From a virus (taxonomy: Duplodnaviria; Caudoviricetes): DNA of 64,000 bases. The stretch's first letter is position 1; each line of letters begins with the position of its first letter. Positions 15,364 to 46,282 of the stretch are shown here, piece by piece. The stretch lies in IMG/VR virus record IMGVR_UViG_3300031992_000077, positions 1 through 64,000 of that record; one strand, written 5' to 3'. Both the position numbers and the translations under genes were made by a program. The notes beneath the pieces are model-generated. The model ran no database searches. It had not been told where the DNA came from and saw nothing but the letters and a program-made list of their open reading frames with translations.

Positions 15364-16491
15364 ATGAAAGGTTATGTTGATGGTTTTGACTGGTATAACG
15401 CAGAAGCCATGAAATACTGGAGTATCCCTTCGTCTTATAGCGCAGAAAAAGGAAAAACTGAAATTAAAAATGCTATCTTTAGCGGACGTTATTATGGGGC
15501 ACTTAAAGTAGACGGATATTATCAACGTCTTATTAAGGATGAAGACGGTAACTGTTTTATGGTTGCGCGCTCAAAAAATGTAAAAGGTGAACCAACTGAT
15601 AAATACGACTGGGTTCCGCAGCTTCATAAATTTATGGATAGTTTACCTAATGGAACCGTTTTACTTAGTGAATGTTATTTACGTGATAATGAAGGTTCAC
15701 AAAAAATAACTAGTCTACTGGGATGTCTTAAAGATAAATGTATAGAGCGGCAAAAGAAAGACCAGTGGCTTAGCTTTTATATTTTTGATATTTGTGCTTA
15801 TAACGGTAAAAATTTAATTAATACTCCTTTTAAAGAAAGAATAGATATTTTAATAGACCTCTCATTTAAATATAAAACCGCGCCACTTAATAGTGTATGT
15901 TCTTGTATTACTTGGGCTGAATATTTTTATGGAGAATCTTTATGGAACGAATTACAGAATTACCTAGCTAGCGGGCGAGAAGGTGTAGTAATTACACGAG
16001 AAGATTGTCCTATTTATTTTAAGCGCACCCCAGCGCACATAACAATTAAAGTCAAAAAAGAATTACGAGAAAGCCTAGACTGCTTCTTTACAGGGCGCGC
16101 GACGCCTCCGACCAGAATATACAGTGGTATTAGCCTGCCCAGTTGGGAATATTGGGAAGACCCGATTACAAAAGAAAAACTTAAGGGTAATTATTATAGA
16201 GAATATATGAACGGCGCGCCGATTGAGCCAGTTACTAAGTCTTATTTTAATGGAATGGCCGGCAGCCTAGAAATAGGAGTTCTTCGAGATGGAAAAGTAT
16301 ATCCTATTGGTTATCTTAGCGGTCTTAGTGACGAAATTAAAAGTAACTATAAAGAATATACTGGAAAGTGTTTAGAAGTTGGGGCAATGCAATTTACAGA
16401 AGGGAATAATGCATTAAGACACGCGAAAATGATTAGACTTCGTCCTGATCTTAATGTAGAAGATTGTACTTGGGAGAAACTTGGATTGTGA
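15364..16491 (+). CDS. ATP-dependent DNA ligase
   Basis: Motif I LKVDG, then FYIFD, EGVV, IKVKK, LRHAK...RPD; no TAG. Confidence 0.85.
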   Translation: MKGYVDGFDWYNAEAMKYWSIPSSYSAEKGKTEIKNAIFSGRYYGALKVDGYYQRLIKDEDGNCFMVARSKNVKGEPTDKYDWVPQLHKFMDSLPNGTVLLSECYLRDNEGSQKITSLLGCLKDKCIERQKKDQWLSFYIFDICAYNGKNLINTPFKERIDILIDLSFKYKTAPLNSVCSCITWAEYFYGESLWNELQNYLASGREGVVITREDCPIYFKRTPAHITIKVKKELRESLDCFFTGRATPPTRIYSGISLPSWEYWEDPITKEKLKGNYYREYMNGAPIEPVTKSYFNGMAGSLEIGVLRDGKVYPIGYLSGLSDEIKSNYKEYTGKCLEVGAMQFTEGNNALRHAKMIRLRPDLNVEDCTWEKLGL

Positions 16492-16862
16492 GTAGTTACG
16501 AAGAACAAGTGGCGCTTATATTAAAAAAAGAACGTATAAAATTTCAAAGAGAAAAAACCTATTCAGATTTAAAACACGGTAGGTTTAGATATGATTTTTA
16601 TTTACCTACTTTAAATTTTTTAATAGAATTAGATGGGTAGTTTCATTGGAATCCCATACGTGGAGAATAGGAGTTAAAAAAATAGCGCGAGCATGATAGA
16701 TAGAAAAATTCCTATGCACTTGCGCATAATATACCTTTATTTAGAATCCCGTATTGGGATTTAGATAGCGGCGTTATAAAAACTTTTAATGACCTTATTC
16801 AAAAAAAATATCATGTAGTTAATAAATGGCATAATGATAGAATAAAAGTCCCAAAAAAATAA
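16488..16862 (+). CDS. DUF559/Vsr-like PD-(D/E)XK endonuclease, 124 aa, 4 TAG
   Basis: GTG start overlapping the ligase stop; RYDFYLP...IELDG(TAG)FH...HDR(TAG)KN...FRIPYW. Confidence 0.75.
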
Positions 16863-16904
16863 AGTAATATCAAACTAAACTCTACTTTATGTAGAGGTGA
16901 TGGT

Positions 16905-17402
16905 ATGAATATTTTTAAAGATATAGTCGATTGGTCGCTCTCAGATTTTGCAAGTTTTTTCGGCGGCTTAATTATATTAATTTATATTTTTTCTGAGGTC
17001 TTTAAAAAAGTCACAGAATAGACTAAATGGGCTTAGGAAAGAAAAAAAGAAAGAGAAAAAGTAAAACGAGAAGCTGCACATGATTAGTATAAAGAATTTA
17101 CAGACGAATTTGTAAAAGAATTTGTGCCTCCACTTGTAGCTCATTTTGAACAATCTGATAAAGAAATAATTAAAAAATTAGATCAACTAAATAATTCCTC
17201 AAATGATATGTTAAGAAAATAGATGACTGATATTTATTATAAGTATCTACCTTATAAAAAAATATTATAGTATGATAAAAAATGTTTTATTAAATTATAT
17301 CATGACTACGGCGCGCAAGGTGGTAATTCATATGTAGATGAATTAAAAAAAGAAATAGATACTTGGGAAGTAGTTTTAACTGAGGAAGATTTACATTGGT
17401 AA
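16905..17402 (+). CDS. Membrane-anchored protein of a type often found near phage lysis genes, 165 aa, 5 TAG
   Basis: N-terminal hydrophobic helix FFGGLIILIYIF; C-terminal DMLRKQMTDIYY...LYHDYGAQGGNSYV. Confidence 0.6.
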
Positions 17403-17409
17403 ATTTTAG

Positions 17410-17455
17410 AAGAGAAAAGTTATAATTTGACTTTTCTCTTTTTTTATGTTATAAT
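17410..17455 (+). terminator. Intrinsic terminator fused with a sigmaA promoter
   Basis: 11-bp stem AAGAGAAAAGT/ACTTTTCTCTT plus T-tract; -35 TTGACT at 17427 overlaps the loop and 3' arm; TGT-TATAAT at 17450. Confidence 0.75.
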
Positions 17456-17487
17456 ATAATTAGAAAAAAATAGGAGTAGTAGAATTT

Positions 17488-18561
17488 ATGGAATATATTA
17501 TTTATTGTATTCTTGGAGTTTTACTATTATTTTTTATTGTTCTCTTTTTTAGACAGCAAAAATAGAATAAATATTTATTAGAAGAAAATAAAAAAATAGA
17601 AGAAAATAAATTAGAAGAATTAAATTAGAAATATAATAAAAGAAAGGAGTTCCTCGAAGAAGATTATAATAAAAAATAGGAGTATCTTCAAGATTAGTAT
17701 AAAAAAAGAGAAAATCAATTATATCAAGATTTCTATCAAGCGCAATAGAATTATAATGAAATAACTGAAAATTTAAATTAGAATTTTAAAAGATATAAAG
17801 AGTCCTAGTATAAATTAATACAAGAAGATTTAGAAGAATATAGTAAAAATGAAAAATTTAAAAAATAGATTGAAATAGAAAAAAATACTTAGGAACTTTA
17901 TGAACAATATATAAAAAAACAAAAGCTACTTGAAGAAGAATTTCAATCTAAAAAAGCAGAAATAGAATTTGAAATAAAAGAAACTTATGATGATGCCGCA
18001 GAAGCTGCGTTAGAATACTGCGATATACTTGAAACTTTAGATGATTTTCGCAGACGGCGCGAGGTCGTAAATTCATAGGTATTGCGTGAAAAACAAATAC
18101 AAGAAGAAAAAGATTTTTATCGTATTTGTCTTAGTTAGAATGATATAGAAGACCTATAGATTATAAAAGATATAGAACATAAATTTAATAATAAAGAAGT
18201 TCTTCATAAAGCGGCTTTTGACTGTTATGTACGACGGCCGCTATCTGAGATGGAAAAACGAGTCTTAGGTAATAAAAAACCAAGTGGAATTTATATTATA
18301 ACCTATATTCCTACTGGAGAAATATATATAGGTCGTTCAACTGATATAGCAAATCGTTGGACAGAGCATGTAAAAAGTGCGTTTAATCTTGGTACTATCG
18401 CGCATAGCTCTCTCCATACAAAGATGGAAGAAAAAGGAATTTGGAATTTTACTTTTTAGATTTTAGAAGAAGTTTCAAAAGAAAAATTAAATGAAAGAGA
18501 GAAATATTGGATTAATTTATATGGCGCGACAACGCTAATGAATTAGAAATAGGGTGGATAA
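17488..18561 (+). CDS. Transmembrane helix + coiled coil + GIY-YIG endonuclease, 357 aa, 15 TAG
   Basis: YIIYCILGVLLLFFIVLFF helix, long E/K/Q-rich heptad region, then SGIYIITYIPTGEIYIGRSTDIANRWTEH...ERE...N. Confidence 0.8.
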
Positions 18562-19614
18562 ATGAATTTAAGTAAAAAATAGAAAGAAATAGTTGAATCA
18601 CCATATCCAAAAATAGTTGTTAATGCTGCAGCAGCTAGCGGAAAAACAGCTCTTATAGTAGAGCGAGTTAAATTTATGCTCTCACGCGGTTATATGCCAG
18701 AACGTATAGTTGTTATTACTTTTACTACAGCCGCGGCAGATGAGATGAGAAAGAGAATTGGTTATGTTGATGGCTTATTTATTGGAACTATTCATGCTTA
18801 TGCACTTTATCTTTTAAGTGTATATGGTTTAAATGAAAAGGCATTATAGTATATAAATGAAGAAAAATTTGATAGTCTTTTTGCTATGGTAAAAAGACAT
18901 AGAAAATGCATTAAACAAGTAGATTATCTTATGGTAGATGAAGCTCAAGACTGTTCAGAGAATGAATGGGAATTTTTTGCGTTAATAGACCCTGCTGGGT
19001 TTTTCTATTGCGGTGACACAAAACAATGCATTTATGAATGGCGAGATGCAAGACCAGCTGATTTTTTAGAAATAGCGTCTTATGAAGAAGTACATACATA
19101 TTCTCTTGATGAAAATTATCGGAATGGATACTCCATTCTTAACTTTGCAAAAGATATTATAACTCGTACTAAATCTCATATGTATGATGACTCAATACCA
19201 ATGCGTCATACCTCTGGAAAGGTCTAGTGGGTTGAATTTAACTTAGGTAATATAGCTAAATTAATTAAAAATAGTAAGGAACCTTATGGTAGCTGGTTCG
19301 TACTAGCGCGCACCAATGATTAGATAGAAAGTATATAGTATATCCTAGATTCATATGGAGTCCCAAATATTACCTTTAAACGTGGCGGGAAAAGCTTTGA
19401 TGAATTAGACGCACTCACTAAAGAAGATAAAGTAAAAGTCTTAACTATTCACACAGCGAAGGGACTTGAAGCGGATAATGTGGTCGTTATTGGGGCTAGA
19501 CTATGGGGTGATGAGGAAATAAGACTAGCTTACGTAGCGGCAACTCGTGCGAGAGAAAATTTATATTGGGTATATAACAAAAAGAAAAAAGCTAATATAG
19601 AAAGTTGGGAATAA
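18562..19614 (+). CDS. Compact UvrD/Rep-type SF1A helicase, 350 aa, 5 TAG
   Basis: LSKK(TAG)KEIV Q-motif, AAAASGKT, DEAQD, GDTKQCIYEWR, ENYR, VLARTND, TIHTAKGLE, EIRLAYVAATRA. Confidence 0.9.
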
Positions 19615-19844: not shown

Positions 19845-20001
19845 AGTTAAATATAAATATACTGGTGATATTTATACTGTTCTAGATGTTAAATATGATG
19901 AATATTATTAGATTACTCGTTTTCTTATGTGGGTTGATGATGAATGGAAATGGGTAAGAGCTGATAATTTTGTACCGCCAAACTATGAAGGAAGTCAATA
20001 A
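19837..20001 (+). CDS. Hypothetical protein (54 aa, 1 TAG)
   Basis: MFKVKYKYTGDIYTVLDV...FLMWVDDEWKWVRADNF; AGGTGA RBS. Confidence 0.6.
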
Positions 20002-20032
20002 ATTTGACTTCTTTTTTAATTTATGGTATAAT
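19991..20032 (+). terminator. Hairpin/T-tract fused with a sigmaA promoter
   Basis: GAAGTCAA/TTGACTTC stem whose 3' arm is the -35 TTGACT (20004); TGG-TATAAT at 20027. Confidence 0.7.
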
Positions 20033-20139: not shown

Positions 20140-20886
20140 ATGAGTAAATTAAAAAATGAAATTGGAAATACATATGGGTATTTAACAGTTATAGGGCGCG
20201 CGCCGAATAATAAAGATGGTCGCGCAATGTGGAAATGTAGATGTAAATGTGGGAATGAAATTATAGTTTCTGGGAAACATTTACGTTCTGGTAATACTAA
20301 ATCTTGCGGCTGTTATTAGAAAGAACGTGCGATTGAATCAAATCTTATTAGGGGCGGAGATTTAACTGGAAAAAGATTTGGTAAATTAGTAGTTTTATGT
20401 GAAGATGGTTTTATAACTGGTTCAAATGGAAAAAGACGTAGATTATGGAAATGTCAATGTGATTGTGGGAATATTTGTTCTATTCAACACCAATATTTAA
20501 ATTATGGCGATACTACTTCTTGTGGTTGTATTAATTCAGTAGGAAATATGACAATTACAAGATTATTAAATAAATCTAATCATAAATATAAAGCAGAATA
20601 TTCTTTTAAAGATTTTATTTGTAATACCAAACCATATCAATTCGATTTTGCTCTTTTAGATAATGACGATAATTTGTTAGGACTAATAGAGTATCAAGGA
20701 GATATTCATTTTGTATATAAAGATATTGGTTGGAATACTAAAGAATCTTTTGAAGAAAGAGTAAAACGAGATAAAGAAAAATTTAATTATTGTAAAGAAC
20801 ATAATATAAAATTATTTTATATTACATATAAAGATGATATAGAAGAAAAATTATAGGAGATATTAAATGAGTTATACAGCAGATGA
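20140..20886 (+). CDS. Free-standing putative homing endonuclease: two Cys-rich DNA-binding repeats plus DUF559/Vsr-like nuclease, 248 aa, 2 TAG
   Basis: Two copies of G..FG.L.V...WKC.C.CGN......L..G.T.SCGC, then QFDFALL...LIEYQGDIH. Confidence 0.75.
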
Positions 20887-22717
20887 TATAAAATCATTAT
20901 CTTTTAGAGAAGGTGTAAGAACTCGTATTCAAATGTATCTTGGTAGCGCTGATAATGAAGGTGCCTATCAAGCTTTTAAAGAAATTATAAATAATAGTAC
21001 TGACGAAGCGCTTTGCGGTTATGGTAATCAAATTGATATTTCAGTAGATGAAGAAAACAATACTATTGAAGTTCAAGACTACGGGCGTGGTGTTCCTTTT
21101 TTAGTAAAAGAAGATGGTACTAATGTTCTAGTAGATGTATACACAAAAGCCCACACCGGCGGTAAATTTGATGACCACGCATATAAAAATGTTGGAGGTC
21201 TTAATGGTGTTGGTGGAAGTTGCGTATGTTTAAGTTCTCTTGACTTTATGGTAGAGAGCTGTCGTGATGGTAAGATGGCGCGCGCTATGTTCTTTAAAGG
21301 AGAGCTAGTTAGTTATAATGAGTTTGATACTAAACATGCTAATGGTACTCTTGTTAAATTTACACCAGACCCCGAAGTTTTTAAAGATGAAAAGATTCAA
21401 TATGATTATGAGAGAATTTGTAATGATATAAAGAATATTTGTTATCTTTATAGCGGAATTACATTTAATGTATATAATCTTAAAACAGGCAAGAAAAATA
21501 CATATTCCGCGCGCAATGGTATTAAAGACTTTATCAAAGATAATTTGAGTACACCGCTTCATAAAACAATTCAATATGCTACTGCCACTGATGGTGAAGA
21601 TAAAATTGAAATTGCTTTTCAATGGGGTGCAAAGCGCGAGACTTCTTATGTATTTGTTAACGGCTTGCTATGTCCTGAAGGAGGCAGTCCCATAACGGGA
21701 GCAAAAACAGCTATTACGCGTACATTCAACTCCCTATCAAAACAAGACTTTGATGGTGATGCAATTCGTGGAAATTTATTCTATGTAATTAATTGTTCTG
21801 TTGCACATCCGTCTTTTGCAAATCAAACAAAATCAAAAATCAATAATGCTAATCTGCGTACACTTGCTTCTAATGCTTTTAGCGATGCGCTGAAGTCAAT
21901 GAAGATTAAACTTCCACAAGAGTTTGATACAATCGTAGAATTATTGAAAAAAATTGCAAAGGCAGAAGCTGCCGCAGAGAAGGCGCGCCAGCAAGTTCTT
22001 AATGCTTCAAAAGAAATTGAAAAGAATCAAAAGAAAAAAGTTTTTGCTTCTGATAAATTGAAAGATGCGGAGTTTCTTGGGCAGAACTCGACCCTTCTTA
22101 TTGTTGAAGGTAATAGTGCTATGGGTGGTATGGCTCAGGCGCGTGATTACAAGAAGTATGGTATCCTGGCAATTAGGGGTAAGATTATTAATTGCTTGTC
22201 AAATCCCGAAGAAAAGATTTTTGAGAACGAAGAAATTAAACTTCTTTTGAGTGCGATGAATATCGTGCCGGGGAAATATAATAGTTCAAAACTTCGTTAC
22301 GGCCGCCTTGCAATCTGTACCGATGCAGATAGCGATGGATACCATATTGGACTTTTAATTATGGCTGCACTTACCTATCTTGCGCCGCAGTTTATTAAAG
22401 AAGGACGCTTGTGCTGGTTGCGCTCACCACTTTATATTGTCAATAATGGTAAGCAAGAAAGCTACTATTTCGATGATACAGAATTTAATGCTGTGCGCGG
22501 CAAGATTAAAGGTGAAGTAACGCGCGCAAAAGGTCTTGGTGAATTGCCGGCTGAAACCGCGCGAGCATCTATGTTTACTGAACAGTATCAACGTATGGAA
22601 GCTATGGAATATAGTGATGAAGCGTTAGGTTTATTGTATGATTTAATGGGCGAAGACGTAAAACTAAGAAAAGAATTTATTTTTAATAATATTGATTTTT
22701 CGGAGATAACGGAGTAA
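20867..22717 (+). CDS. gyrB: Type IIA topoisomerase (gyrase) subunit B
   Basis: EIINNSTDE, DYGRGVP, HTGGKF, GGLNGVG, VEGNSA, IRGKIIN, DADSDG, KGLGE; no TAG. Confidence 0.95.
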   Translation: MSYTADDIKSLSFREGVRTRIQMYLGSADNEGAYQAFKEIINNSTDEALCGYGNQIDISVDEENNTIEVQDYGRGVPFLVKEDGTNVLVDVYTKAHTGGKFDDHAYKNVGGLNGVGGSCVCLSSLDFMVESCRDGKMARAMFFKGELVSYNEFDTKHANGTLVKFTPDPEVFKDEKIQYDYERICNDIKNICYLYSGITFNVYNLKTGKKNTYSARNGIKDFIKDNLSTPLHKTIQYATATDGEDKIEIAFQWGAKRETSYVFVNGLLCPEGGSPITGAKTAITRTFNSLSKQDFDGDAIRGNLFYVINCSVAHPSFANQTKSKINNANLRTLASNAFSDALKSMKIKLPQEFDTIVELLKKIAKAEAAAEKARQQVLNASKEIEKNQKKKVFASDKLKDAEFLGQNSTLLIVEGNSAMGGMAQARDYKKYGILAIRGKIINCLSNPEEKIFENEEIKLLLSAMNIVPGKYNSSKLRYGRLAICTDADSDGYHIGLLIMAALTYLAPQFIKEGRLCWLRSPLYIVNNGKQESYYFDDTEFNAVRGKIKGEVTRAKGLGELPAETARASMFTEQYQRMEAMEYSDEALGLLYDLMGEDVKLRKEFIFNNIDFSEITE

Positions 22718-23175: not shown

Positions 23176-23648
23176 ATGAAGATATAGTTTATTTTTCTTT
23201 TAATAATTGGTTTAGCGGTAGAGATTATCCTATTGGAGATAAATACGAAGAATTAATAAATTCTCATAAATTTAGTAACGAAAATTGGGTTAAAGAAAAT
23301 AAACTTGTTGTAGTAACTGGCAATATTGATATGTCTGTTAATTGGTGTATTGCTGCACCAAGGAAATGGGTAGAAGAAAATTTGCCAGAACTTTTAACTA
23401 ATAAGGAATATAATTATGATATTATTACTTATTATAAAGGTAAGGAAACAGTAACCACATATACCAAAAAATATAGTGATTTTGTATACCCTGGAACTCC
23501 TTGGGAATGTAAATATGGTATGCCTTTTAAAGAATATGATGAAGAAGCAGCAGGTGTGTATTATATAGAAGAGGACGAGTGGGAATGGAATGATGATGAA
23601 GAGGACGAAGAAGAATGGAATGATGATGAAGAGGACGAAGAAGAATGA
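23172..23648 (+). CDS. Hypothetical protein with acidic tail
   Basis: 158-aa ORF with ATGA overlaps on both sides. Confidence 0.7.
   Translation: MNEDIVYFSFNNWFSGRDYPIGDKYEELINSHKFSNENWVKENKLVVVTGNIDMSVNWCIAAPRKWVEENLPELLTNKEYNYDIITYYKGKETVTTYTKKYSDFVYPGTPWECKYGMPFKEYDEEAAGVYYIEEDEWEWNDDEEDEEEWNDDEEDEEE
23583..23642 (+). repeat. Perfect 30-bp tandem duplication encoding EWNDDEEDEE twice
   Basis: gaatggaatgatgatgaagaggacgaagaa x2. Confidence 0.95.
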
Positions 23649-23818
23649 TTAAATATATCTGTGATAAATGTGGTAAAGAAATAGATAAATTTTTATTAAG
23701 AGATTGTATGATTATGTCAGTTACTGGACGTTATGCAAGATATGATAAAAGTGAAATCATATTATGCGAAAATTGTAAGGAAAATTTCAATAATTGGATA
23801 GGTGATACAGATGAGTGA
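23645..23818 (+). CDS. Small zinc-finger protein (57 aa)
   Basis: YICDKCGKEI...LCENCK. Confidence 0.65.
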   Translation: MIKYICDKCGKEIDKFLLRDCMIMSVTGRYARYDKSEIILCENCKENFNNWIGDTDE

Positions 23819-26165
23819 ATTAAAACCAGTAATTGAACAATCTTTCGCGCAATATGCTGGCATGGTAATTCAATCCCGTGCGCTTGTTGACGCGCGCGAT
23901 GGGCTCAAACCTTCTGCACGCCAAATCTTCTATTCAATGCTCCTTCATAAACTCACTCATAATAATCCCTATAAGAAAACTGCTAATGCTGTTGGTATGG
24001 CCATGGCAGATTTCTATATTCATGGCGATTCGAGCTGTGAAGGAATTATTATGCGCGCCGGTCAGAACTTTGCTATGCGTTATCCGCTCGTAGATGTAAA
24101 AGGTAACTCTGGCTCTCTTATTGAAAGTGGTAACTGGGCCGCTATGCGTTATACGGAGAGCCGTTTGTCTGCGCTTTCTAATATTCTCTTTACAGATATT
24201 GATAAAGATACCGTAACGGAATGGCGCGACAGCTACGATAATACAAAACAATACCCAGCGGTTCTTCCGTCAAAAGGTTTTTATAATCTTTGTAATGGTA
24301 CAAGTGGTATCGCAGTAGGTCTTGCAAGTTCTATTCCGCAGTTTAATTTAAAGGAACTTAATAATGCGCTTATTAATCTTATTCAAAATCCAGATTGTGA
24401 TTTTGATGATATTTACTGCGCGCCTGACTTTGCTACTGGCGCGGTTCTACTTAATGCAGATGAAGTAAAAGAGAGTTTACGTGCTGGTAACGGGCCGGCT
24501 TGTAAATTGAGAAGTGTTGTTGAATTTGATACGGCTGAAAGATGTTTTGTAGTAAAAGAAATTCCTTATTCTGTTTATACAAATACTATTTGTAAACAGC
24601 TTGAAGAACTCATAGAATCAGAAGAGAACCCTGGAATTGAACGTTTTAATGACTTAACTGGCGCGACGCCTTTGATTAAGATTTACCTTGCAAAAAAAGC
24701 AAATCCAGATAAGGTATTAAAGTATTTGTATAAAAATACTTCACTCCAGTATTACTATGGCATTAATCTTACTATGCTTGATGGTGGTAAATATCCTAAA
24801 GTATTTACATGGCGCGAAGCTCTTCAAGCGCATATTGACCACGAAAAAGTTGTATATCGTCGTGGCTTTGAACATGATTTGAATAAGATGAAGTTTCGTG
24901 TTCATATTATTGAAGGGCTCTTGATTTGTATCGCGCGCATTGAAAAGGTCATTCAGACAATTAAATCTTCGAGTTCTACCGCAGAAGCAAGCGCGCGCCT
25001 TCAAAAAGAATATCTTCTTGATGCCGACCAAGCAAAGGCAGTCCTAGACTTAAAACTTAGCCGATTAGCGCACCTTGAAGTAACTAAGCTGAACGGCGAA
25101 AAAAATGACCTACTCGAAAAAATTGGTGCAATCGAACAAATTTTAAATGATGAAATCCTATTTAATAATGAGCTTATTAAGGGTTGGAAGGAAGTTGCCG
25201 CAAAATATGGCGACGCGCGCCGTACACACATATTAAATATCTCGAAAGAAGATGAAGAGGAACCGACTGAGGTTCGTAATCTAATTCTTAACTTTACAAA
25301 TAAGGGCGGAATTTATGTAACTGAAAGCTCTTCTCTCTATACACAGCGTCGAGGCGGAGTTGGAAGTAAGTTTAAAATGGAGAAAGGAGAATATATTGTT
25401 GGTACTGAAACCGGTGATAATACCGATATAGTTCTATTATTCTCCGATAAAGGAAATTTCTTCCAAATTAAAATGAGTGAATTTCCAGTAAATGAAAAAA
25501 CTTACATAACTCAATTTATTACTATGACGGCGACAGAATCTATTTGTAACGCCGCAGTTTATGCGAAGAATGAAAATAAGAATATTTATTTTATTACAAA
25601 GAATGGTTTACTTAAAAAATCTCTCTTATCTGAATACTACCTTAAACGTGGTAATAGCGCCCGCGCCATAAATCTTGACAGTGATGATGAAATAGTAAGT
25701 GTATTCTTTGGAAATGATAACCTTGATTGTGGTATTCTTAGTAGCGATGGAAACTTTATCATGTTTAAAACTGATGATGTAAAGCCTATTGGTCGTATAG
25801 CACGCGGTGTAAAAGCTATTAAACTTAATGACGGAGCTTTCGTACAAGATGCTCGAATGATACCAAAGGATACTAAAACTATTATCTCTGTAACAAAGAA
25901 AGGTCTAACGAAACAAACAAATATAGATGAATTTTCTTATACAAATAAAAATACAAAAGGTTCTAAAATCCAAGGTTTAACAACAGATGATATGGTAGTT
26001 TCTTTTGATGCACTTAGCGCGGAGACTGAAATTATTGTTACATCTACTACATCACAGATACGAGTCGCAGCGGCGGAAATCCCAATGCTTTCTCGTTCAG
26101 CGCAAGGAGTTCATGTAATAAAACTTAAACCGTTGGAACAAGTAATTCAGATAGAAAAAATTTAA
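23811..26165 (+). CDS. gyrA: DNA gyrase subunit A
   Basis: RDGLKPSARQI, HGDSS, AAMRYTE (catalytic Tyr), GyrA-box-like QRRGGVG and beta-pinwheel repeats; no TAG. Confidence 0.95.
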   Translation: MSELKPVIEQSFAQYAGMVIQSRALVDARDGLKPSARQIFYSMLLHKLTHNNPYKKTANAVGMAMADFYIHGDSSCEGIIMRAGQNFAMRYPLVDVKGNSGSLIESGNWAAMRYTESRLSALSNILFTDIDKDTVTEWRDSYDNTKQYPAVLPSKGFYNLCNGTSGIAVGLASSIPQFNLKELNNALINLIQNPDCDFDDIYCAPDFATGAVLLNADEVKESLRAGNGPACKLRSVVEFDTAERCFVVKEIPYSVYTNTICKQLEELIESEENPGIERFNDLTGATPLIKIYLAKKANPDKVLKYLYKNTSLQYYYGINLTMLDGGKYPKVFTWREALQAHIDHEKVVYRRGFEHDLNKMKFRVHIIEGLLICIARIEKVIQTIKSSSSTAEASARLQKEYLLDADQAKAVLDLKLSRLAHLEVTKLNGEKNDLLEKIGAIEQILNDEILFNNELIKGWKEVAAKYGDARRTHILNISKEDEEEPTEVRNLILNFTNKGGIYVTESSSLYTQRRGGVGSKFKMEKGEYIVGTETGDNTDIVLLFSDKGNFFQIKMSEFPVNEKTYITQFITMTATESICNAAVYAKNENKNIYFITKNGLLKKSLLSEYYLKRGNSARAINLDSDDEIVSVFFGNDNLDCGILSSDGNFIMFKTDDVKPIGRIARGVKAIKLNDGAFVQDARMIPKDTKTIISVTKKGLTKQTNIDEFSYTNKNTKGSKIQGLTTDDMVVSFDALSAETEIIVTSTTSQIRVAAAEIPMLSRSAQGVHVIKLKPLEQVIQIEKI

Positions 26166-26182: not shown

Positions 26183-26211
26183 TTGAATTTTTATAAAAAT
26201 TCTGATATAAT
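26183..26211 (+). promoter_or_regulatory. sigmaA-type promoter
   Basis: TTGAAT-17 nt-TATAAT preceded by TGA. Confidence 0.75.
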
Positions 26212-33561: not shown

Positions 33562-33590
33562 TTGAAAAAGTTTTAAAATTATGATATAAT
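33562..33590 (+). promoter_or_regulatory. sigmaA-type promoter for dnaE
   Basis: TTGAAA-17 nt-TATAAT preceded by TGA. Confidence 0.8.
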
Positions 33591-36600: not shown

Positions 36601-37593
36601 TTGCTTGCTAAAGTAAAACTTAAAAAACCGCAAGTAATTAATCTTATTAAAGCTGGCGCGTTTGATGAGTTTGGTGACAGATATAATTTAATGGAATCTT
36701 ATATTGAAACTATTTGTGATGCAAAGAAACGAATAACTTTACAAAATATGCAAATGATGATTAATTTTAATATGATTCCAGACGCGTATGCTTTTCAAGT
36801 TAAAGTATTTAATTTTAATAAATATCTAAAGAAGTGCAAGTTTGATAATAAATTTTATTTCTTAGATGAATTTAGTTTCCCTTTTTATGAAGAAAATTTT
36901 GATATAGATTTATTAGAAAATAGAGATAATATATTCTTTCTTCCGATATTAAAATGGGATAATATTTATCAAAAGCAAATGGATATTATTCGTCCATGGA
37001 TAAAGAAAAATGCAGACGAATTATTAAAAACTTTAAATGGATATTTAATGGGCGAAACTTGGAATAAATATTGTTTAGGTTCTATCTCTAAATGGGAAAT
37101 GGATAGTACATCTTGTTACTTCCACGCGCATGAACTTAGTAAAATAGATTATGATTGGTATGGATTTAGCGACTTTTTTGAATTGCCACTTACTCCAGAA
37201 ATAGAAAGTCAAATAAGAATTAAGAATAAACTTATTCCTATTTTTAGATTAAGTAGAATCTGCGGAACTGTATTAGATAGAGATAAAAATAAAAAAACTG
37301 TAACAGTTCTCACACCTAGTGGTGTAGTTACAGTAAAAATTTATGGTGATGCATTCACACACTATGATAGACAGATAAGTGAACGAGGGGCTGATGGCAA
37401 GAAGCATGTAATTGAAAAGTCTTGGTTTAGTAGAGGCCGAAAAATAATTGTAACTGGTATTCGTCAAGAAGATGGATTCTTAGCTAAAAAATATAGCCGA
37501 ACCCCATTTCATTTGGTTGAACTTATAACTAATATTAATGAAGATGGAACTATTGATTCTTGCGGTGAACGTATGGAGGTTACAGAACATTGA
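33622..37593 (+). CDS. dnaE: DNA polymerase III alpha subunit (family C)
   Basis: PHP motifs HTHTDYS, TDH and TDSHY; GPGRGSG, FLNPAR, LDVDFD, HAGG, KYDALS, YGFNKSH; 1323 aa with no TAG. Confidence 0.97.
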   Translation: MEYTGSIHTHTDYSNIRLRDCIIKLEDGIAYAEKLGHKVIGITDHEFTGSWVKAKRIAKKHPDIKVILGNEIYLCRNGLNAQNYNREYDRYYHFILLAKDRIGARQIMEISTRAWKRSYMARGMRRVTTYYQDLFDIIGTNPGHVIGSTACLGGALPTQLLRYRDSNNEILKEKIAIWIEQMNGLFGDGNFYLELQPSKNKDQIYVNQRLLDISNATGIPYIITTDSHYLKKEDRIIHKSYLNAQNGDREVDEFYATTYMMGTEELESFFKYLSREQLDKAYQNIQDIADKCEEYSLEKPLRIPNLKWKSIEKEPDAWGYEEMCMKIPMLWTFAESPYESDRYLVKAVVHGIDIHPDLQSQEAYDEINACLEDTWVSSNVNNARWSAYYLNLQRIIDVCWEADSIVGPGRGSGVGFILLYVLGITQINPMREKTKTYRWRFLNPARVSVLDVDFDIEGSKRAQVLSKFREVYGEDYVANVATFRTEKSKSAILTAARGLGIDVDIAQYIASLIPADRGLLRSLDQCMYGDVENNFSPIKQFVYEMTENYPELWQVAHGIEGLICGSGIHAGGVIFVDEPFTESTALMRAPDGTICTQFELHDSEAVSLIKYDALSVEAMDKIHNCINLLCDYGYAERKNSLKETYENIIGIYNIERDAPDMWKMVWNHEIQSLFQMEKQSGIAGIALLKPTSVDDLATLNSVIRLMAQEKGGEMPTNKLARFKANPELWDKEMENWGLNSDERAILHKELDTSYGICESQEGFMQLVQTPECGGFDLTWADRLRKSIAKKNPKEFDQLTEEYYQNIKDKNLSRNLCDYVWKVLVAYSRGYGFNKSHTLAYSLIALQEMNLAYKYPIIFWNCACLINDAGGDETTDDEESNFEEPVEVSWNNEIEDFILDSEDEDDDDDDEEEVKDKKKKKAKKINYGKISSAIGKMKMEGINISPPDINKSIFTFSPDPERNIIRYGLSGITGLGDDAIKEIISNRPYTSLQDLLAKVKLKKPQVINLIKAGAFDEFGDRYNLMESYIETICDAKKRITLQNMQMMINFNMIPDAYAFQVKVFNFNKYLKKCKFDNKFYFLDEFSFPFYEENFDIDLLENRDNIFFLPILKWDNIYQKQMDIIRPWIKKNADELLKTLNGYLMGETWNKYCLGSISKWEMDSTSCYFHAHELSKIDYDWYGFSDFFELPLTPEIESQIRIKNKLIPIFRLSRICGTVLDRDKNKKTVTVLTPSGVVTVKIYGDAFTHYDRQISERGADGKKHVIEKSWFSRGRKIIVTGIRQEDGFLAKKYSRTPFHLVELITNINEDGTIDSCGERMEVTEH

Positions 37594-38663
37594 TAATTGG
37601 TTTATGGGATGCAGATTTTATGAAATATAAGTAGCCAGTTTTCAATTTAGAGCTTATGAAACTGGCTACTTATTATAAATAGAAAAAAGATATAGTTAAA
37701 TTAGCCCCAGTATTAGACCCATATAAATATACAAAATTTATTTATCGTAAAGATTGGGATGATGGAGATTATCCTAAAGAAATTTTTTTAGATAATGTGA
37801 CCTACGGCGGGCGCGCCTTTGGAGAAAAATATAAATCATTAGGTATAAATATAGAATCTGTAACACCAGATACATATTTATATTAGAGTTTTATTAATGA
37901 ATTTCATGGTGCGCAATTAAATCATTTTAAAATGATGTAGAATTCAGCCCATATTAGACTTTCATTAGATGGGGAAACTATTTGGAAAGATTATAATAAA
38001 AGTTTTAATTTTACTAATACAACACGTAGTTTTTTCTTTCATGATTATGATTTGAATAAAATATAGAATAGTGCAGAAGAAATAAAAAAAATAATTGAAA
38101 GTGACGGCAGTAAAGTTAGTCGAGTTGTTGGTATGAAATTTCCAGTATAGGTTAATAATGAGATAGATTTGGCTCGGTGGCTAGCATTACCAGGCGCGCA
38201 AGTATACTATTCAATTTAGTATAATGGGATTATGAATGATAAAGCTTTTTAGGTCTTTTTGTCAGGAAGTAAATTATAGAGCCGTAACTTAGACTATATT
38301 GTAACTTCTTCACTATCGGGAGAGGATGATTTTGTCAAGAACGGACTACCAATAATTTATAAATAGCTCTTAATTTCATAGATGCATAAAAAAAGAATTT
38401 TACTTAAATATGAAGATGATTTTTTCTAGGATAAAAGATGGGAAGATTTAATTACTTATTTCAATGAATATAATTCAGCAGATGTTACGCGTAAATTTTC
38501 AAAAACATTATTTTACTATACTAGCCATATTTTAGATAAATAGTCTATATATAAACCTAAATTTTCACGAGACTACATAGCTGAACTCTTTGAGATGGTA
38601 AGAGAGAAAAATTATGATGTTTTTAAAATGTTTTATGAAAATATAGGAGGAGATTTTATATGA
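37590..38663 (+). CDS. Hypothetical protein with radical-SAM-associated N-terminus but no Cys cluster motif, 357 aa, 13 TAG
   Basis: TTG start with GGAGG RBS; IGLWDAD...NLELMKLATYYK(TAG)KKDIV; frame traced to TGA 38661. Confidence 0.7.
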
Positions 38664-39054: not shown

Positions 39055-40977
39055 ATGAATATTAATATTAGACTTGATAAAAATTTTACTACACAATTTA
39101 ATAAACTTCAAGAAAAATACGGAGAAGAATTCGCTAAACTTAATGGCTTAAGTGATGAATAGCTTTCCTATACAGACTTTATTTCTAATTTTATTGAATC
39201 TGAGACTGTAGCCGATGCATCTGTGGATAGTAATGCTAATGTAGGTCATAAAGATATTGTGACACTACTTAATGAAATGCCTAAACCGCATAGAAAACTT
39301 TTGGCTCTTCGTAAGATTTATTATGAAATGAATAAGACTTATGGTTTTAAAGTGGCCAATGATTGGCTTGAAAAAGAATGGTCGCGCGCGCTTTATATGC
39401 ATGATGCTGATACTTCTACTTTTAAACCATATTGTTATGCTTACGACCTTAAAGATTTGGCAGAACGTGGTTTATTCTTTCTTGAAGGTTTTAATGCAGA
39501 ACCTCCAAAGCATTTGGGTACTTTTATTGACTTTGTAAAAGAATTCATTAGCTATAATGCCAATAGAACATCTGGTGCTTGTGGTTTACCTAATCTTATT
39601 CCTTATATGTACTATTTTTGGAGCCGTGATGTAAAAAATAATTATTATACTCGCGACCCAGAAAGCTATGCAAGACAACATATTCAGCGCTTTATCTATG
39701 CAGTAAATCAGCCATGCGTGCGTGATGGTATGCAGAGCGCGTTTACTAATACCTCTATTTTTGACCATGAATATTTAATGGCGCTTTTCGGCGGTTCAAT
39801 TTTCCCTGACGGTTCATTTATGGTTGATGAAATTGAAGGAATTATGGATTTCCAAAAACTTTTTATGGAAGTTATGAGCGAGATTCGTGAACATAATATG
39901 TTTACTTTCCCAGTGAATACTATTTCACTTCTTAAAGTAAATGGTGAGTTTAAAGATGAAGAATTCGCACGTTGGGCCTGTAAACATAATATGAAATGGA
40001 GTGATAGCAATATTTTTGCAGACAGTAGTGTTAATTCTCTTTCTAATTGTTGTCGTTTAAAGAGCAATATTGAAGATTTGGGTTATTTTAATTCGATTGG
40101 CTCTACTGCGCTTCGTGTTGGTAGCGTAAAGGTATCTACTATTAATCTCGCGCGCCTTGCTTATGAAAATAAGACAGAAAAAGAATATCTTAAAGCTCTT
40201 CAAGAAATTACGGAACTTAATCTTAAAGCGCTCGATTGCGTCCGCCATATTATTCAGCGCAATATTGAGAAAGGACTTCTTCCTAATTACTGCGATGGCT
40301 TAATTGATATTAATACACAATATAATACTATTGGTGTACTTGGCATTTATGAAACTATGCGCGCGTTTGGATATACAAAACAAGACGAATTTGGCAACAC
40401 TTATTATACCGAAGATGCTTATAAATTTGGAGAAAAAATCTTTAAAGTCATTCATAATACTAAAGACCTTTTTAATATTGATAAAGATTATAGGATTAAT
40501 CTAGAGGCGGTTCCCGCGGAGCAGGCTGCGGTAAAAATGCAAAAAGCAGATGAAATGTTATATCCTGAAGTAGTAATAAAAGATTTGCCTTTATATGGTA
40601 ATCAATTCCTCCCACTTGGTATTAAAGCAACTCTTCAAGAACGAGTCCGTATTGCTAGCACTTTTGATAATTATTGTAATGGCGGTTCTATTTTACACGT
40701 AAATATTGAAGCACCATTTACTAATTTCAATCAAGCCTGGAAGATGTTAAATTATATCACAGATGCAGGCGTTACTTATTTTGCTTTCACAACAAAAATA
40801 CAAGCTTGTAAAAATAACCATGCTTTCTTTGGAAAAGTTTGCCCAGTATGCGGTGAACCAGTAGCTACAGAATATAGTCGTATAGTAGGATTTTATACTC
40901 CAGTTCGTACCTATTCAAAAGAGCGCAAAGCTGAATGGCAGATGCGTGAGTGGGAGAATGTAAATAATGAAAATTAA
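39055..40977 (+). CDS. nrdD: Anaerobic (class III) ribonucleoside-triphosphate reductase, 1 TAG at 39160
   Basis: TFPVNT, NCCRL, STINLARLA, EAVPAE, GGSI, CPVCG, SRIVGFY (glycyl radical site). Confidence 0.92.
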
Positions 40978-41473
40978 ATATTTAGTTGAAGAAGATTTTG
41001 TCAATTATAAAAAACCTTCACTATTTATTGGTTTTCCTGCTTGTACATTTAAATGCGGCGAAATGAATTGTTAGAATAGTTCATTGGCACATGCCGAAGA
41101 TATTGAGATTTCTAAAGAGGACATTTGTGAAAGATATATTAAAAATGAGATTACTGAAGCTTTTGTATTTGGTGGGCTAGAACCTTTTGATAGTTTTATG
41201 GATTTAATAAGTCTTATAGATTGTATTAGGAATAAATATAATATAGAAGATGATATTGTAATTTATACTGGATATACAAAAGAAGAATTAAAAAAAGGTC
41301 AGTTCGGAAAAGATAATGAAATATCAAGAATTAATTATAAATATTTAACAGATACATATAAAAATATTATAATTAAATTTGGTCGCTATTATCCAAATCA
41401 AAGCGCGCATTTTGACAAAGTTCTTGGTGTAAATCTTATAAGTGATAATCAATATGCGGAGAAAGTATCATAA
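40967..41473 (+). CDS. nrdG: Anaerobic RNR activase (radical SAM), 1 TAG
   Basis: [10 protein letters not shown](TAG)N, GGLEPF, VIYTGY, SDNQ. Confidence 0.88.
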
Positions 41474-42705
41474 TGGAAAATATTAGAGAATTAGATAATT
41501 TTATTAATTCAACTCTTGAATTTGAACATGGATATCTTGCGAAGATATTAGAATTAGAAGAAGAGCGCCAAAATAGAAACATTGAGTTAATTGCAAGTGA
41601 AAATTATACTTCAGATGCCGTTCGTGCGGCAATGGCTTCTTGCCTTACTAATAAATACGCAGAAGGATATAGCGGCAATAGATTTTATGGCGGTTGTGAA
41701 TATATTGATAAAATAGAAGATTGCTGTAAATAGACTTGGTAGAAAGTATTTAATACAAACTATAGTGTAAATGTATAGCCACATAGCGGAACACAAGCCA
41801 ATCTCGCGGTTTACAATGCATTACTAAATCCAGGGGATACAATATTGTCTCTAAATTTAAACAGCGGCGGGCATCTGTCTCATGGCTCTTTGGCCAATTT
41901 AAGCGGAAAAATTTATGATGTATATTATTATAATTTAGATAAAAATGGCTATATTGATACTGTAAATATGGTAGAATGCCTTAAAAAATATCATCCAAAA
42001 TTGGTTATTGCTGGCGCATCAGCATACCCGAGACAAATTTATTTTTCTAATATTAAAAAAATATTAGAAATTTTTGCTGATAATGAATCAATAGAATAGC
42101 CATATTTTATGGTTGATATGGCGCATATCGCTGGTTTAGTCGCAACTGGCTTTCACCCTTCTCCCTTTGGGTACGCAGATGTAATTACAACCACAACGCA
42201 TAAAACCTTGCGCGGACCACGTGGAGGATTAATTTTTTGTAAACCAGAATTAGAAAAGAAAATTAATAGCGCAGTATTCCCAGGTATGCAAGGTGGACCG
42301 CTAGAACATGTTATTCTTGCTAAAGCAGTCTGCGCGGAAGAGTGTTTATAGCCAAATTATAAGGAATATATAAATTAGGTTATATTAAACGCGGCGGCTA
42401 TGGCAAACGAATTTAAAAATAATGGATATGATTTAGTTAGTAATGGCACAGATACGCATTTATTTTTAATTGATTTTTCTAAAACACACCCGAATCTTAC
42501 AGGGCGCGCCGTGTAGGAAGAATTAGATAAATATAATATTACATTAAATAAAAATTGTGTACCTAATGAAAAGCGAAGTCCTTATTTAACTAGTGGTATT
42601 CGTATTGGAACACCGGCTATGACGACACGCGGCTGGAAAGAAGAAGACTTTATTAAATGCGCCAATTATATAGATAACATAATAAAAAATTTGACTAATA
42701 AATAA
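41473..42705 (+). CDS. glyA: Serine hydroxymethyltransferase, 410 aa, 7 TAG
   Basis: LIASEN, NKYAEGY, YGG, NV(TAG)[45 protein letters not shown]. Confidence 0.95.
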
Positions 42706-42719
42706 AAATATGATATAAT
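42691..42719 (+). promoter_or_regulatory. sigmaA-type promoter
   Basis: TTGACT-17 nt-TATAAT preceded by TGA; overlaps the end of glyA. Confidence 0.75.
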
Positions 42720-42741
42720 ATAAATAGTGAGGAGGAATACT

Positions 42742-43575
42742 ATGAAAGAATTTAAAATTGGAGTCGTCCCCGCTAAATTTGATTTTCGAGATTATAAAAT
42801 AAAATATAAAGGTATAGCAACCGCAGCAAACTTTCCAAAATAGTTTGAACTATCTATGCCAAAAGTAAAGTATTAGGACCAAGTAGGCAGTTGCGTAGCT
42901 TTCTCCTTATCCTTACTTTTTGAATATTTTAATAAACGAGAAACAAAAACAGATGTCACCATGAGTACATCTTATATTTATGGAAACCGTAGAAATAGTA
43001 CTTGGAAAAAGCCTGGTATGCGAGTTAGGGATGCTTTAAAAAACGGGTGTGAATATGGAGACGTTAGTAAAGACCTAATGCCTAAAAATATTGAAGTCCC
43101 GGAAGCTATTACTTATTTTGAAAAAGAAGGTCTAAAATTAAAAGAAATAGGCCAAATAAATCGTATTAAGAAATTTTTCAAAATTACCTCTGCCAACGCG
43201 ATGAAAGAGTGTTTAATGAATTACGGCCCTATTCTTGTTATAATAAAATGGTATAGTAATAACGTAGTAGATGGACAAGCTATATTAAAATCTGGCAATA
43301 ATAAAAAATACTATGATGGATAGCATTGTATGGTATGCTACGGTTGGAATGAAAAAGGTTGGAAAATTTAGAACTCTTGGGGTATCGGCTGGGGAAAAAT
43401 GGGTAAAGCTATTTTACCTTTTGACACTAATTTTGTAGAAGTTTGGGGAGTAATTGATTAGGAAAATTTAAATAATAGTAATTTAGAAATTATTACTCCA
43501 TGTAAAAACAATACTTCTGCATTAATAGCGAAAGGAATGAATAATATTGTAAATTTAATACTAGGAAGAAGATAA
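42742..43575 (+). CDS. Papain-like (C1A) cysteine peptidase, 277 aa, 5 TAG
   Basis: Y(TAG)DQVGSCVAFS catalytic Cys region, G(TAG)HCMVCYGW His region, I(TAG)NSWGIGWG Asn region. Confidence 0.85.
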
Positions 43576-44264
43576 TGATTAAAGTAGAAAATATAGAAAT
43601 TTTTAATTTCATTGGAGCTATGAGAGGATTACGAAATCCAATGAATAGTTGGGCAAAAAATGATACAATAGAAATTATGGGACATTTAGAGCAACCTTTG
43701 TATAGCTCTAATACTAATGAGCCTATAATTGGCCCCAATGATTTACAACTCGCGCAACGTATGTTAGGTGGCGGCGCCGAAGAGTCTAAGTTTATGCGGC
43801 AGATAATGATATGTATGGATATAGACGCTCCGTTATTCTGGTGGAAGGAAATGGATACTTATAAAGTTGGTACAGTTGCTAATTCTTGTAGTACGATGCA
43901 TAAGCTTACGAGTAACGAAATTGGCGCGCAGAACTTTTCTTTTGATATGGAAATTACAGATTTTCCTGAAGAATATCAAGAATTAATAAGCATGATAAGA
44001 GTAAATTCAATTCATTACTGTGAACAACTTCGTGAAGCATATAATAAAACAAAAGATAAACGCATATGGCGCGCGCTCATAGAAATCTTGCCTGAAGGAT
44101 GGAATCAGCGCCGTACTTGGACCGCCAATTACCAAGTATTAAGAAATATCTATTTCTAGCGCAGAAATCATAAATTAGATGAATGGAGAGAGTTCTGTAA
44201 GATAATTGAAGAATTGCCTTACGGAAAAGAACTAATTTGTTACGAAAAAGAGAAAAAGGAGTAA
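43575..44264 (+). CDS. ThyX-like (flavin-dependent thymidylate synthase-like) protein, 229 aa, 1 TAG
   Basis: MRGLRNPMNSW, KFMRQI, APLFWWKEMDTYK, LPEGW, NYQVLRNIYF(TAG)RRNHKL.EW; the canonical RHRx7S motif is not conserved. Confidence 0.6.
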
Positions 44265-44270
44265 ATTATT

Positions 44271-44639
44271 ATGACAATTAATTACAAAGATAAATTTTAT
44301 ATTTATCATCCAGACGGGAAATTTACAGAAGAACAACTAAAAAAGATACTCGATGCAGCGTATGAAATGGGAAAAAAAGAAGGATATAATGATGGATATG
44401 AGCAAGGAAAAAAGAATCATTTTACTATAACTTACCCATCTTATCCATGGAGTACCCCATGCTATACTAATCCTAGTATTACATGTACAGACCCTACTAA
44501 AATTCCTTCTTCTATCACAACTGCCACTTCAATCATTAAAACTAATAAAGATTATTCAATAACTACGAAAAATGATGTCCCATTTACGTTAACTAATAAT
44601 ACTTGTAGGGAGTTTAAATATAATGGAACAGAAGAATAA
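44271..44639 (+). CDS. Hypothetical protein
   Basis: 122-aa ORF, AAGGAG RBS, AYEMGKKEGYNDGYEQG segment. Confidence 0.65.
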   Translation: MTINYKDKFYIYHPDGKFTEEQLKKILDAAYEMGKKEGYNDGYEQGKKNHFTITYPSYPWSTPCYTNPSITCTDPTKIPSSITTATSIIKTNKDYSITTKNDVPFTLTNNTCREFKYNGTEE

Positions 44640-45555
44640 TACTATTGAAGAAACCAAAGAAGTAAATCCAATAATCGATAGTTTCGAAGCAATTTCTAAA
44701 ATTATGGTAGGGGAAGAAGGAACAGAAGATATAACTACTATGTTCGGCGCACTTCTTTCTATGCCAGATGAAGAATTTAAAGAAGTGTCGTCTATTCTTC
44801 TCGATGAAATCATTCGTTCTTTAAATACTCCCGCAGATAGAATTGCTCTTGTTGCGGCAATGACTTCTAATGGCTATACTGGTGATGATTTAACCGATAC
44901 ATTTCAAGAGCTTTGTAAAGAAATTGATACACAACTCACAGAACTTTCACAAATTAAACGTGATTGGCTAAAACAGTTAATGGGTGCGGTTACTAATGCA
45001 ATTAATGAAACAGAAGGAATTTCTAAGAAATATGTAAGAGTTGCGTATGAAAAATGCCATGAAGACGCGAAAACCCCTGCATATGCACACGAAACTGACT
45101 CTGGAATGGATGTGTACGCTCTTGAAGAGATTACTCTCGCGCCCGGTGAACAGAAAACTATTCCTATTGGTATAAAAGTCGCATTGCCCGCTGGATACGA
45201 GCTATAGGTGCGTCCAAAAAGTGGCCTTAGTGCGGGAACTAAGTTGCGCGTAGCTAACGCTCCAGGAACAGTTGATGCTGGTTATAGAGATGAAATTAAA
45301 GTTATAATAGAAAACGTAGAACCCCCTATTAAAGATATAACTTACGAACCAGTAATGAATACAGAAAATGGACAAATAGACCATTTGCAGATAACTTCTA
45401 TTCTTTATGGAAGTTCTTATACTATCGGTAAAGGTCAAAAGTTCGCACAGTTAGTATTATCCGAAGTTCCTAAAGCAGTATTATACGAAGTAGAGAAAGT
45501 AGGTGAAATTGGCGAAGACCGCGGAGGCGGATTCGGCAGCACCGGGAAGTTCTAA
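44623..45555 (+). CDS. dut: Trimeric dUTPase with approx. 140-aa acidic N-terminal extension, 1 TAG
   Basis: GMDVYA, GYEL(TAG)VRPKSGL, GTVDAGYRDE, KFAQLV, RGGGFGSTG. Confidence 0.92.
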
Positions 45556-45556
45556 T

Positions 45557-46282
45557 ATGGCTTCCATAAATCTTACTACTATCTAGGAGTAGCTTCCAGA
45601 AGGTTGGAAGGTAATATCTACACAATATAAAAACCTAGATACTGAAATGGAATTTGAGTGTGCAGCCGGCCATAAAGTTTTTTCTACTTGGAAGAAGATG
45701 CGAACACGTGCCGAATGCCCTATATGTAAAGAGAAAGCGCCGCTCGTAGATACTACTATAATTCCTAAAAAGAAAGGAATTTATCGTACCATTGGAATAG
45801 ACCAGGCAACTCATATAAGCGGTTATTCAGTATATGATGGGAAAGAGCTCATTAAATTTGGAACTTTTACAGTAAATGAAACCAATGAAATAGAGCGCGA
45901 TAATATAATAAAAATGTGGTTATGCTCTATTATAAATAACTGGCAACCAGATGTAATCGGTCTCGAAGGAATTCAACTTCAGCAAAACGCCGCTCGTGGT
46001 ATTGGGGTCACTACCTTTGAAACTTTAGCGCGATTACAAGGTATACTTATGGAAGCTTGTTATGAACAAAAAACATAGTTTGTGATATGCCCAACGAATA
46101 CATGGCGCGCGCATTGTAAAGTTAAAGGTTAGACCCGTGAAGCTAAAAAGAATTCAATGAGATAGTTAGCGCGAGAATGGCATAATATTAATGTAAGCGA
46201 AGATGAAGCAGATGCCATCGGAATTGGAAAGTACGTTGCAGAAACATATGCTCTTACACATCAAGTCCAAAATTGGGAATAA
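45557..46282 (+). CDS. Zinc-ribbon-fused RuvC-like nuclease/resolvase, 241 aa, 5 TAG
   Basis: CAAGH...CPIC, then IGIDQAT..SGY, VIGLEG, LARLQG, EDEADAIGIG. Confidence 0.75.

Follow-up and report, generated by a model that had tools for sequence, protein, structure and literature searches.

Amber codon use differs gene by gene across the replication block of a TAG-recoded tailed phage

Amber codon counts in the replication block

We analysed positions 15,364 to 46,282 of IMG/VR virus record IMGVR_UViG_3300031992_000077, a plus strand block of replication, recombination and nucleotide metabolism genes, and counted for each gene how often glutamine (Gln) is encoded by the amber codon TAG. The window, i.e. 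the whole stretch of 64,000 nucleotides that was analysed, comprises the initial 64 kb of one viral contig of 77,328 bp with no terminal repeat and a completeness of ~60% (CheckV). The source is a gut or rumen tailed phage decoding TAG as Gln, and once TAG is taken as sense, the entire contig can be read as long, densely packed genes. Most genes of the block were named by Pfam and PHROG matches. The replication and topology set consists of ligase, GyrB, GyrA, a Sak4-like AAA_24 ATPase, DnaB, primase, RecJ and a DnaE-type Pol III alpha. The nucleotide metabolism set consists of NrdD, an NrdG-like activase, serine hydroxymethyltransferase (SHMT) and a dUTPase-domain protein. A papain-family peptidase, a RuvC-like resolvase, a short UvrD-like helicase, two HNH homing endonucleases and a GIY-YIG nuclease protein complete the list. 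An Rfam scan of the window was negative for group I introns, ribozymes and all other families.

Seven genes contain no in-frame TAG at all: the ATP-dependent DNA ligase (15364-16491, 7 Gln), GyrB (20867-22717, 19 Gln), GyrA (23811-26165), a YorF-family protein (26660-27595, 13 Gln), the DnaB-type helicase (29216-30778, 20 Gln), the primase (phrog_47; 30768-31820, 8 Gln) and the YorL-like Pol III alpha (33622-37593), whose 42 Gln codons are 35 CAA and 7 CAG. Together they contain 135 Gln codons among 4,279-4,282 codons in all, the range reflecting the choice of GyrA start. An earlier note on this DNA, made from the sequence alone, had reported seven TAG-free replisome genes of more than 4200 codons and about 40 Gln in Pol III, and our recount agrees. 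It also agrees for the conserved protein unk357 (37590-38663), which overlaps the Pol III alpha TGA stop and has TAG at 13 of its 15 Gln codons (2 CAA, 0 CAG). We observed exactly one TAG in each of six genes: the YorH-position protein (phrog_4680; 28690-29226, codon 71, 5 Gln), the RecJ-like exonuclease (31817-33559, codon 488, 19 Gln), NrdD (39055-40977, codon 36, 19 Gln), the NrdG-like activase (40967-41473, codon 36, 4 Gln), a phrog_6721 protein (43575-44264, codon 195, 10 Gln) and the dUTPase-domain protein (44623-45555, codon 195, 11 Gln). In the family alignments all six of these TAGs, including RecJ codon 488, align with Gln in homologues. TAG accounts for 4 of 7 Gln in the HNH homing endonuclease that overlaps the ligase end (16464-16862), 15 of 28 in the GIY-YIG nuclease protein (17488-18561), 5 of 8 in the short UvrD-like superfamily 1 helicase (18562-19614), 2 of 7 in the second HNH endonuclease (20140-20886), 3 of 7 in the Sak4-like protein at the YorG position (27609-28577; 3% in relatives), 7 of 11 in SHMT (41473-42705) and 5 of 8 in the papain-family (C1) peptidase (42727-43575). 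The RuvC-like resolvase (45557-46282) has 5.

At the genome rate of 0.42, 135 Gln codons would all lack TAG with a probability of 6e-33. The TAG shares are strongly heterogeneous inside the plus strand block (chi2 p = 2e-19), and Pol III alpha differs from its downstream neighbour with p = 4e-11 (Fisher). Out-of-frame TAGs occur at 7.5-7.7 per kb in the TAG-free genes compared to 8.1-10.1 per kb in the TAG-rich genes; for in-frame TAGs the rates are 0 and 7.6 per kb. TAG share decreases with the GC content of third codon positions (GC3; Spearman -0.40, p = 0.004). The earlier note had proposed a per-gene test with GC3 control, and after fitting GC3 the heterogeneity persists (p = 5e-26). Under the GC3-predicted rates both Pol III alpha (P = 4e-7) and DnaB (P = 7e-7) are still far below the prediction. 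Across the gene families we detected no correlation between TAG share and protein conservation measured as amino-acid identity (rho = -0.31, p = 0.27): TAG is present in NrdD, the most conserved family, and almost never in the fast-evolving YorF. We thus confirm that the TAG partition is real and that neither composition nor protein conservation, which the earlier note had named as competing causes, is the reason for it.

The same note had sorted the genes into three tiers. For the window this division was not borne out, as a mixture of two classes (p = 0.03 and 0.55) fits the TAG shares better than three (Bayesian information criterion, BIC, 107.4 vs 111.5). The Akaike information criterion likewise ruled out three classes for the window alone.

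Several lines of evidence concern the meaning of the codon. TAG codon 102 of SHMT is the conserved Gln of the motif NVQPHSG, and codon 302 is Gln in both PDB alignments listed. When up to 51 relatives are aligned, the TAG columns match Gln in the other sequences: 36/36 for NrdD (column 221), 49/50 for RecJ (column 181), 35/35 for NrdG (column 174), 41/41 for Sak4 (column 321) and 34/34 for unk357 (column 277). TAG terminates no called gene, all stops being TAA or TGA. Contig-wide, TAG makes up 42% of the Gln codons (368/870), with 52-80% in the tail and structural genes. Judged by these alignments and stops, TAG is Gln in this contig. Annotation pipelines need code 15 here; otherwise most late genes break up. 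The TGA stops themselves cluster in the block 15364-46282, where they end 9 of the 25 called open reading frames (ORFs), and are almost absent from structural genes. Several of them lie where a stop and a start overlap, an arrangement suggestive of coupled translation.

Two gene starts were revised. GyrA starts at ATG 23811, and the only TAG of the longer ORF (23799) lies upstream of this start. For the RuvC-like gene we use 45557 rather than 45407, which leaves 5 TAGs instead of 8. A 57-codon ORF (23645-23818, +) with CxxC...CxxC spacing, outside the list of ORFs of 100 aa, overlaps both the stop of its upstream gene (ATGA) and the GyrA start (ATGAGTGA).

Two labels of the earlier note also needed attention. 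The gene at 26660-27595, called SSB-like there, is a YorF-family protein according to gene order and family match. The label ThyX-like for 43575-44264 finds some support in weak Pfam Thy1 scores of orthologues; all of them are below the cut-off, and a PDB profile search of this gene returned no match. The unk357 gene directly follows Pol III alpha in 47 relatives. Pfam and PDB profile searches with the unk357 family gave no match. Its AlphaFold2 model is confident (predicted local distance difference test, pLDDT, 88.8) and had no Foldseek match at E <= 0.001. With VIA-align the fold is nearest to B12-binding plus radical-SAM-type enzymes (RimO: Z 10.8, root-mean-square deviation 4.6, 257 aligned), and the family contains no conserved Cys. 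D7, D9, H121, R123, H151 and D152 are invariant. A beta sliding clamp was suspected first; the structure comparison returned no clamp.

Outside the block, structural-type genes form a minus strand block (2119-15155), a second minus strand block lies at 46597-51337, and a third (51433-77047, -) holds tail genes, among them Dit (63013-63969), a minor tail protein of 1,723 aa and a protein of 2,636 aa. The glycosyltransferase at 2119-3093 (-) has 0 TAG among 10 Gln despite the TAG-rich structural block around it. The gene at 47049-47753 (-) has 47% GC compared to 33% for the genome, is rich in CAG and contains 1 TAG among 15 Gln, as if acquired recently and still unadapted to the phage in its codon use. 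TAG-free genes are also found at 510-1341 (+), where RNase H (877-1341) has its own host-type promoter at 452.

Conservation of the ranking in relatives

We found the replication module in 65 IMG/VR loci and 33 genome-bin contigs, with Pol III alpha identities between 27% and 96%. The relatives are a mix of standard-code and TAG-recoded members. On the Pol III alpha tree (loci L001-L065) the two kinds interleave, with roughly ten separate recoded groups, so that the TAG pattern recurs in several backgrounds. Such interleaving would imply that the code changed repeatedly or that the replication module is often exchanged. In one relative with 92% identity (L002, IMGVR_UViG_3300028833_000121) Pol III alpha aligns in one ORF only to residue 1208, and a frameshift, insertion or assembly error is suspected.

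TAG shares were computed for 26 dereplicated recoded relatives, leaving the window out. In the core class we counted 1 TAG among 1,103 Gln for Pol III alpha, 0/153 for GyrA, 2/570 for DnaB, 1/208 for YorF, 4/252 for primase and 2/137 for YorH, or 0.4% when pooled. The middle class reached 5.6%, with 7/231 for Sak4, 7/168 for dUTPase, 5/97 for NrdG, 4/45 for phrog_6721, 26/414 for NrdD and 32/500 for RecJ. For the high class, unk357 (82/283) and RuvC (103/189), the pooled share was 39%. Core was lower than middle in 20 of the 21 informative lineages and higher in one, and middle was lower than high in all 22 of 22. An intermediate TAG class is therefore real across the family. The ranking of the three tiers, for which the earlier note had asked for a check in related genomes, thus holds; the boundaries between them do not, since the per-gene shares run smoothly from 0.001 to 0.55 and the counts are unstable. 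TAG tolerance looks like a continuum rather than three fixed tiers.

The instability is most apparent in the genes with a single TAG. Exactly one TAG per gene is correct for the window and is not a conserved design, as NrdD carries 0-9 TAGs among the relatives and RecJ 0-6. Even a 96%-identical relative (L098) differs from the window in five genes: Sak4 (0 vs 3), NrdD (3 vs 1), dUTPase (3 vs 1), phrog_6721 (0 vs 1) and SHMT (2 vs 7). The share in unk357, 13/15 here, drops to ~29% in relatives. The pattern repeats in a 159-kb relative with 56% Pol III identity, where we counted 0/53 for Pol III, 4/22 for RecJ and 5/8 and 7/13 for the HNH genes. The columns occupied by TAG vary by lineage, with 22 of them in RecJ, 53 in unk357 and a single one in Pol III alpha. 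As the sites differ between lineages, the pattern must have been re-created repeatedly and was not merely inherited. TAG-rich genes of the early block have about the TAG share of structural genes. These observations show selection against TAG in the replisome; they do not show selection for TAG elsewhere.

Promoters, suppressor tRNA and interpretation

We searched for strict matches to TTGnnn-17-TGnTATAAT, a Sigma-70/SigA type promoter with an extended -10 element. Ten matches were found compared to 0.65 expected, nine of them intergenic and facing genes, and none within the two large structural blocks. Besides the sites at 452 (+) and 51409 (-), predicted promoters precede the ligase (15246-15274, TTGAAA-17-TGATATAAT), the GIY-YIG and UvrD-like genes (17427-17455), HNH and GyrB (20004-20032), the YorF-like gene (26183-26211), the YorH-like gene with DnaB, primase and RecJ (28632-28660), Pol III alpha (33562-33590) and the C1 peptidase (42691-42719), all on the plus strand. 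Host RNA polymerase would be expected to use them. The -35 element of the site at 17427 lies inside a terminator hairpin (17408-17442). Terminator-like hairpins at 17408-17455 and 19987-20032 (+) hold the -35 TTGACT of the next promoter in their 3' arm. These two hairpins flank the GIY-YIG and UvrD-like unit, which resembles a self-contained inserted cassette.

The promoters head genes of both kinds, TAG-free in the case of ligase and Pol III and TAG-rich in the case of the GIY-YIG/UvrD-like pair and the peptidase. The earlier note had listed 15246 and 33562 for the former and 17427 and 42691 for the latter, and all four sites are present as it described, so TAG use cuts across promoters. Furthermore, several pairs of TAG-free (or low) and TAG-rich neighbours overlap or are 13 nt apart, as seen for ligase/HNH, YorF/Sak4, Pol III/unk357 and NrdG/SHMT. 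Since such genes share promoters and even overlap, any delay would act at translation, on top of transcription.

We consider it probable that TAG has been purged from genes needed before a suppressor builds up, that the remaining genes tolerate it, and that a translational delay is thereby laid over host-type promoters. If the host uses the standard code, as presumed, its release factor 1 would halt translation at UAG early in infection. Genes needed at that stage could not tolerate TAG, and purifying selection would clear it from the core replisome (Pol III alpha, GyrA/B, DnaB, primase, ligase, YorF). As an amber-suppressor tRNA of the phage accumulates, TAG would become readable. Genes dispensable early, among them the structural and tail genes, those for homing endonucleases and the RuvC-like resolvase, SHMT and unk357 after Pol III, would drift to a neutral TAG share of ~55% of Gln. 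RecJ, NrdD/G and dUTPase may be of intermediate early importance and keep a few TAGs in mutation-selection balance. The tolerance of a gene for TAG would then be proportional to how little its early translation matters. We infer the order of these events, and the delay itself, from the codon pattern.

Several points weigh against this explanation. GC3 accounts for about a quarter (~26%) of the deviance, so TAG use cannot be fully separated from codon-usage class. Neighbouring TAG-free and TAG-rich genes are probably transcribed together, judging from their overlaps and from a lack of promoter or terminator motifs. The closest relative (96%) falls in a rumen Erysipelotrichaceae bin and several others in Bacilli or Clostridia bins (rumen and gut metagenome-assembled genomes), a weak pointer to a host in the Bacillota: binning of this kind is a hint only, and the host code is presumed to be standard. 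We detected no tRNA genes, including an amber suppressor, in the 77-kb, ~60%-complete contig, and no release-factor gene (PF00472) in the contig or in four relatives. Without such a gene in the relatives, the tRNA would have to bring about the switch by itself.

The tRNA genes of relatives number 10-28, and a tRNA with anticodon CUA is present in G002 (95% complete) and G003 (complete). The left end of our contig aligns at ~7,335 of a 92% relative (G001), whose tRNA array spans 150-2010. The contig thus stops ~5 kb short of the array, and the suppressor tRNA is probably just beyond its end. In G002 the CUA tRNA is the first gene ~40 nt downstream of TTGATT-17-TGATATAAT (L080:2831-2978, -), a promoter of the type found in the replication block, in keeping with suppression that increases from the onset of infection. 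Judging by its sequence, this tRNA would have an unpaired 1:72 position and G73, both expected for glutamine identity.

A stronger version of the timing idea, close to that of the earlier note, takes the number of TAGs as an adaptive setting, with output scaling roughly as readthrough^n and three programmed tiers within shared transcripts. Genes with one TAG would then come on while suppressor levels are low, and genes with many TAGs would be late. The intermediate class reproduces out of sample (5.6% vs 0.4% and 39%; core below middle in 20/21 lineages), the suppressor of the relative lies behind a host-type promoter that would let readthrough rise gradually, and promoters are common to TAG-rich and TAG-free genes, all as such a design would have it. 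However, the instability of the counts, seen in the ranges of NrdD and RecJ and in the five genes of the 96% relative, weakens a tuned timer, and in the window two classes describe the data better than three. Moreover, TAG-rich early genes merely reach the structural-gene share, unk357 falls to ~29% in relatives, and nothing shows selection for TAG. The single TAGs have no common sequence context and no position bias, and the base at +4 does not differ between TAG and CAA/CAG (chi2 p = 0.18). We regard a designed graded timer as unlikely. We are similarly doubtful about an evolved analogue delay, in which the suppressor tRNA is made from a host-type promoter since infection start, readthrough r climbs gradually and the output of each gene follows about r^n. 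If it were true, the replisome would appear first and the proteins for nucleotide supply and repair next, followed by the resolvase, the homing endonucleases and the virion proteins, an order set purely by translation even within one mRNA.

Alternatively, replisome genes might remain free of TAG because they are often swapped between standard-code and recoded relatives and would function in both only without it, timing being irrelevant. The interleaved Pol III alpha tree is compatible with this, module exchange being one way to obtain it. However, adjacent or overlapping syntenic genes (unk357, NrdD, RuvC) carry TAG in recoded members and Pol III alpha does not, so that exchange would have to end at gene boundaries every time; we consider this explanation highly improbable. 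That TAG share simply tracks local bases, codon bias or protein conservation is largely refuted and almost certainly wrong: the decrease with GC3 removes part of the deviance, but the residual heterogeneity, the low values of Pol III alpha and DnaB, the equal out-of-frame TAG, the missing correlation with amino-acid identity and the 7 TAGs among 11 Gln in the highly conserved SHMT all contradict it.

Comparison with known systems

In a phage GenBank collection we found no close relative, the best Pol III alpha identity being 37%. The order of the replication genes is nevertheless familiar from Bacillus phage SPbeta (NC_001884). The segment 26660-37593 is collinear with yorF-yorL at similar gene sizes, and both phages share the order YorF, Sak4-like YorG, YorH, helicase YorI, YorJ, RecJ-like YorK and polymerase YorL. 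YorL and the Pol III alpha studied here are 37% identical over 99% of the length. SPbeta differs in using the standard code, and the gene that follows yorL is yorM, a 3D-domain protein whose product is annotated unlike that of 37590-38663. Beyond SPbeta, the phage described here adds GyrA/B, NrdD/G, SHMT and homing endonucleases.

A delay of late genes by codon usage has also been discussed for phage-supplied tRNAs (bioRxiv 10.1101/2021.08.26.457843). In both cases a class of genes would await a phage tRNA. Here, however, the codon would be a stop of the host, and the block would consist of termination rather than slow decoding.

The closest parallel is provided by the recoded gut phages of Borges et al. 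(bioRxiv 10.1101/2021.08.26.457843), who proposed recoding as a post-transcriptional timer in which early genes use the host code and later genes are released by suppression. They reported replication genes in standard code, codes interleaved within clades and, within an early gene, an intron endonuclease that is itself recoded; a review of the Crassvirales (PMC10136315) repeats the timing idea. One of their named clades is Agate (about 127 kb, from cattle and pig). The core of that idea is thus already published, and no new principle is added here. Both groups of phages read TAG as Gln, have heavily recoded structural genes and replication genes free of the recoded codon, show closely interleaved codes, carry a recoded homing endonuclease in the early region and, in complete genomes, encode a suppressor tRNA, seen here in relatives. 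What is new is the gene-level resolution within operons, the intermediate class validated out of sample and the suppressor tRNA of a relative behind a host-type promoter. Overlapping genes that probably share one transcript span 0/42 to 13/15 amber Gln, a clean gene-resolved example of the code-switch idea. As the ranking repeats in dozens of mixed-code relatives, the lineage is well suited to testing recoding as a timer and codon number as a delay setting. Compared to the phages of Borges et al., the phage analysed here differs in its SPbeta-like replication module with a DnaE-type polymerase, in the gene-by-gene partition within host-promoter operons and in the intermediate class formed by RecJ, NrdD/G and dUTPase.

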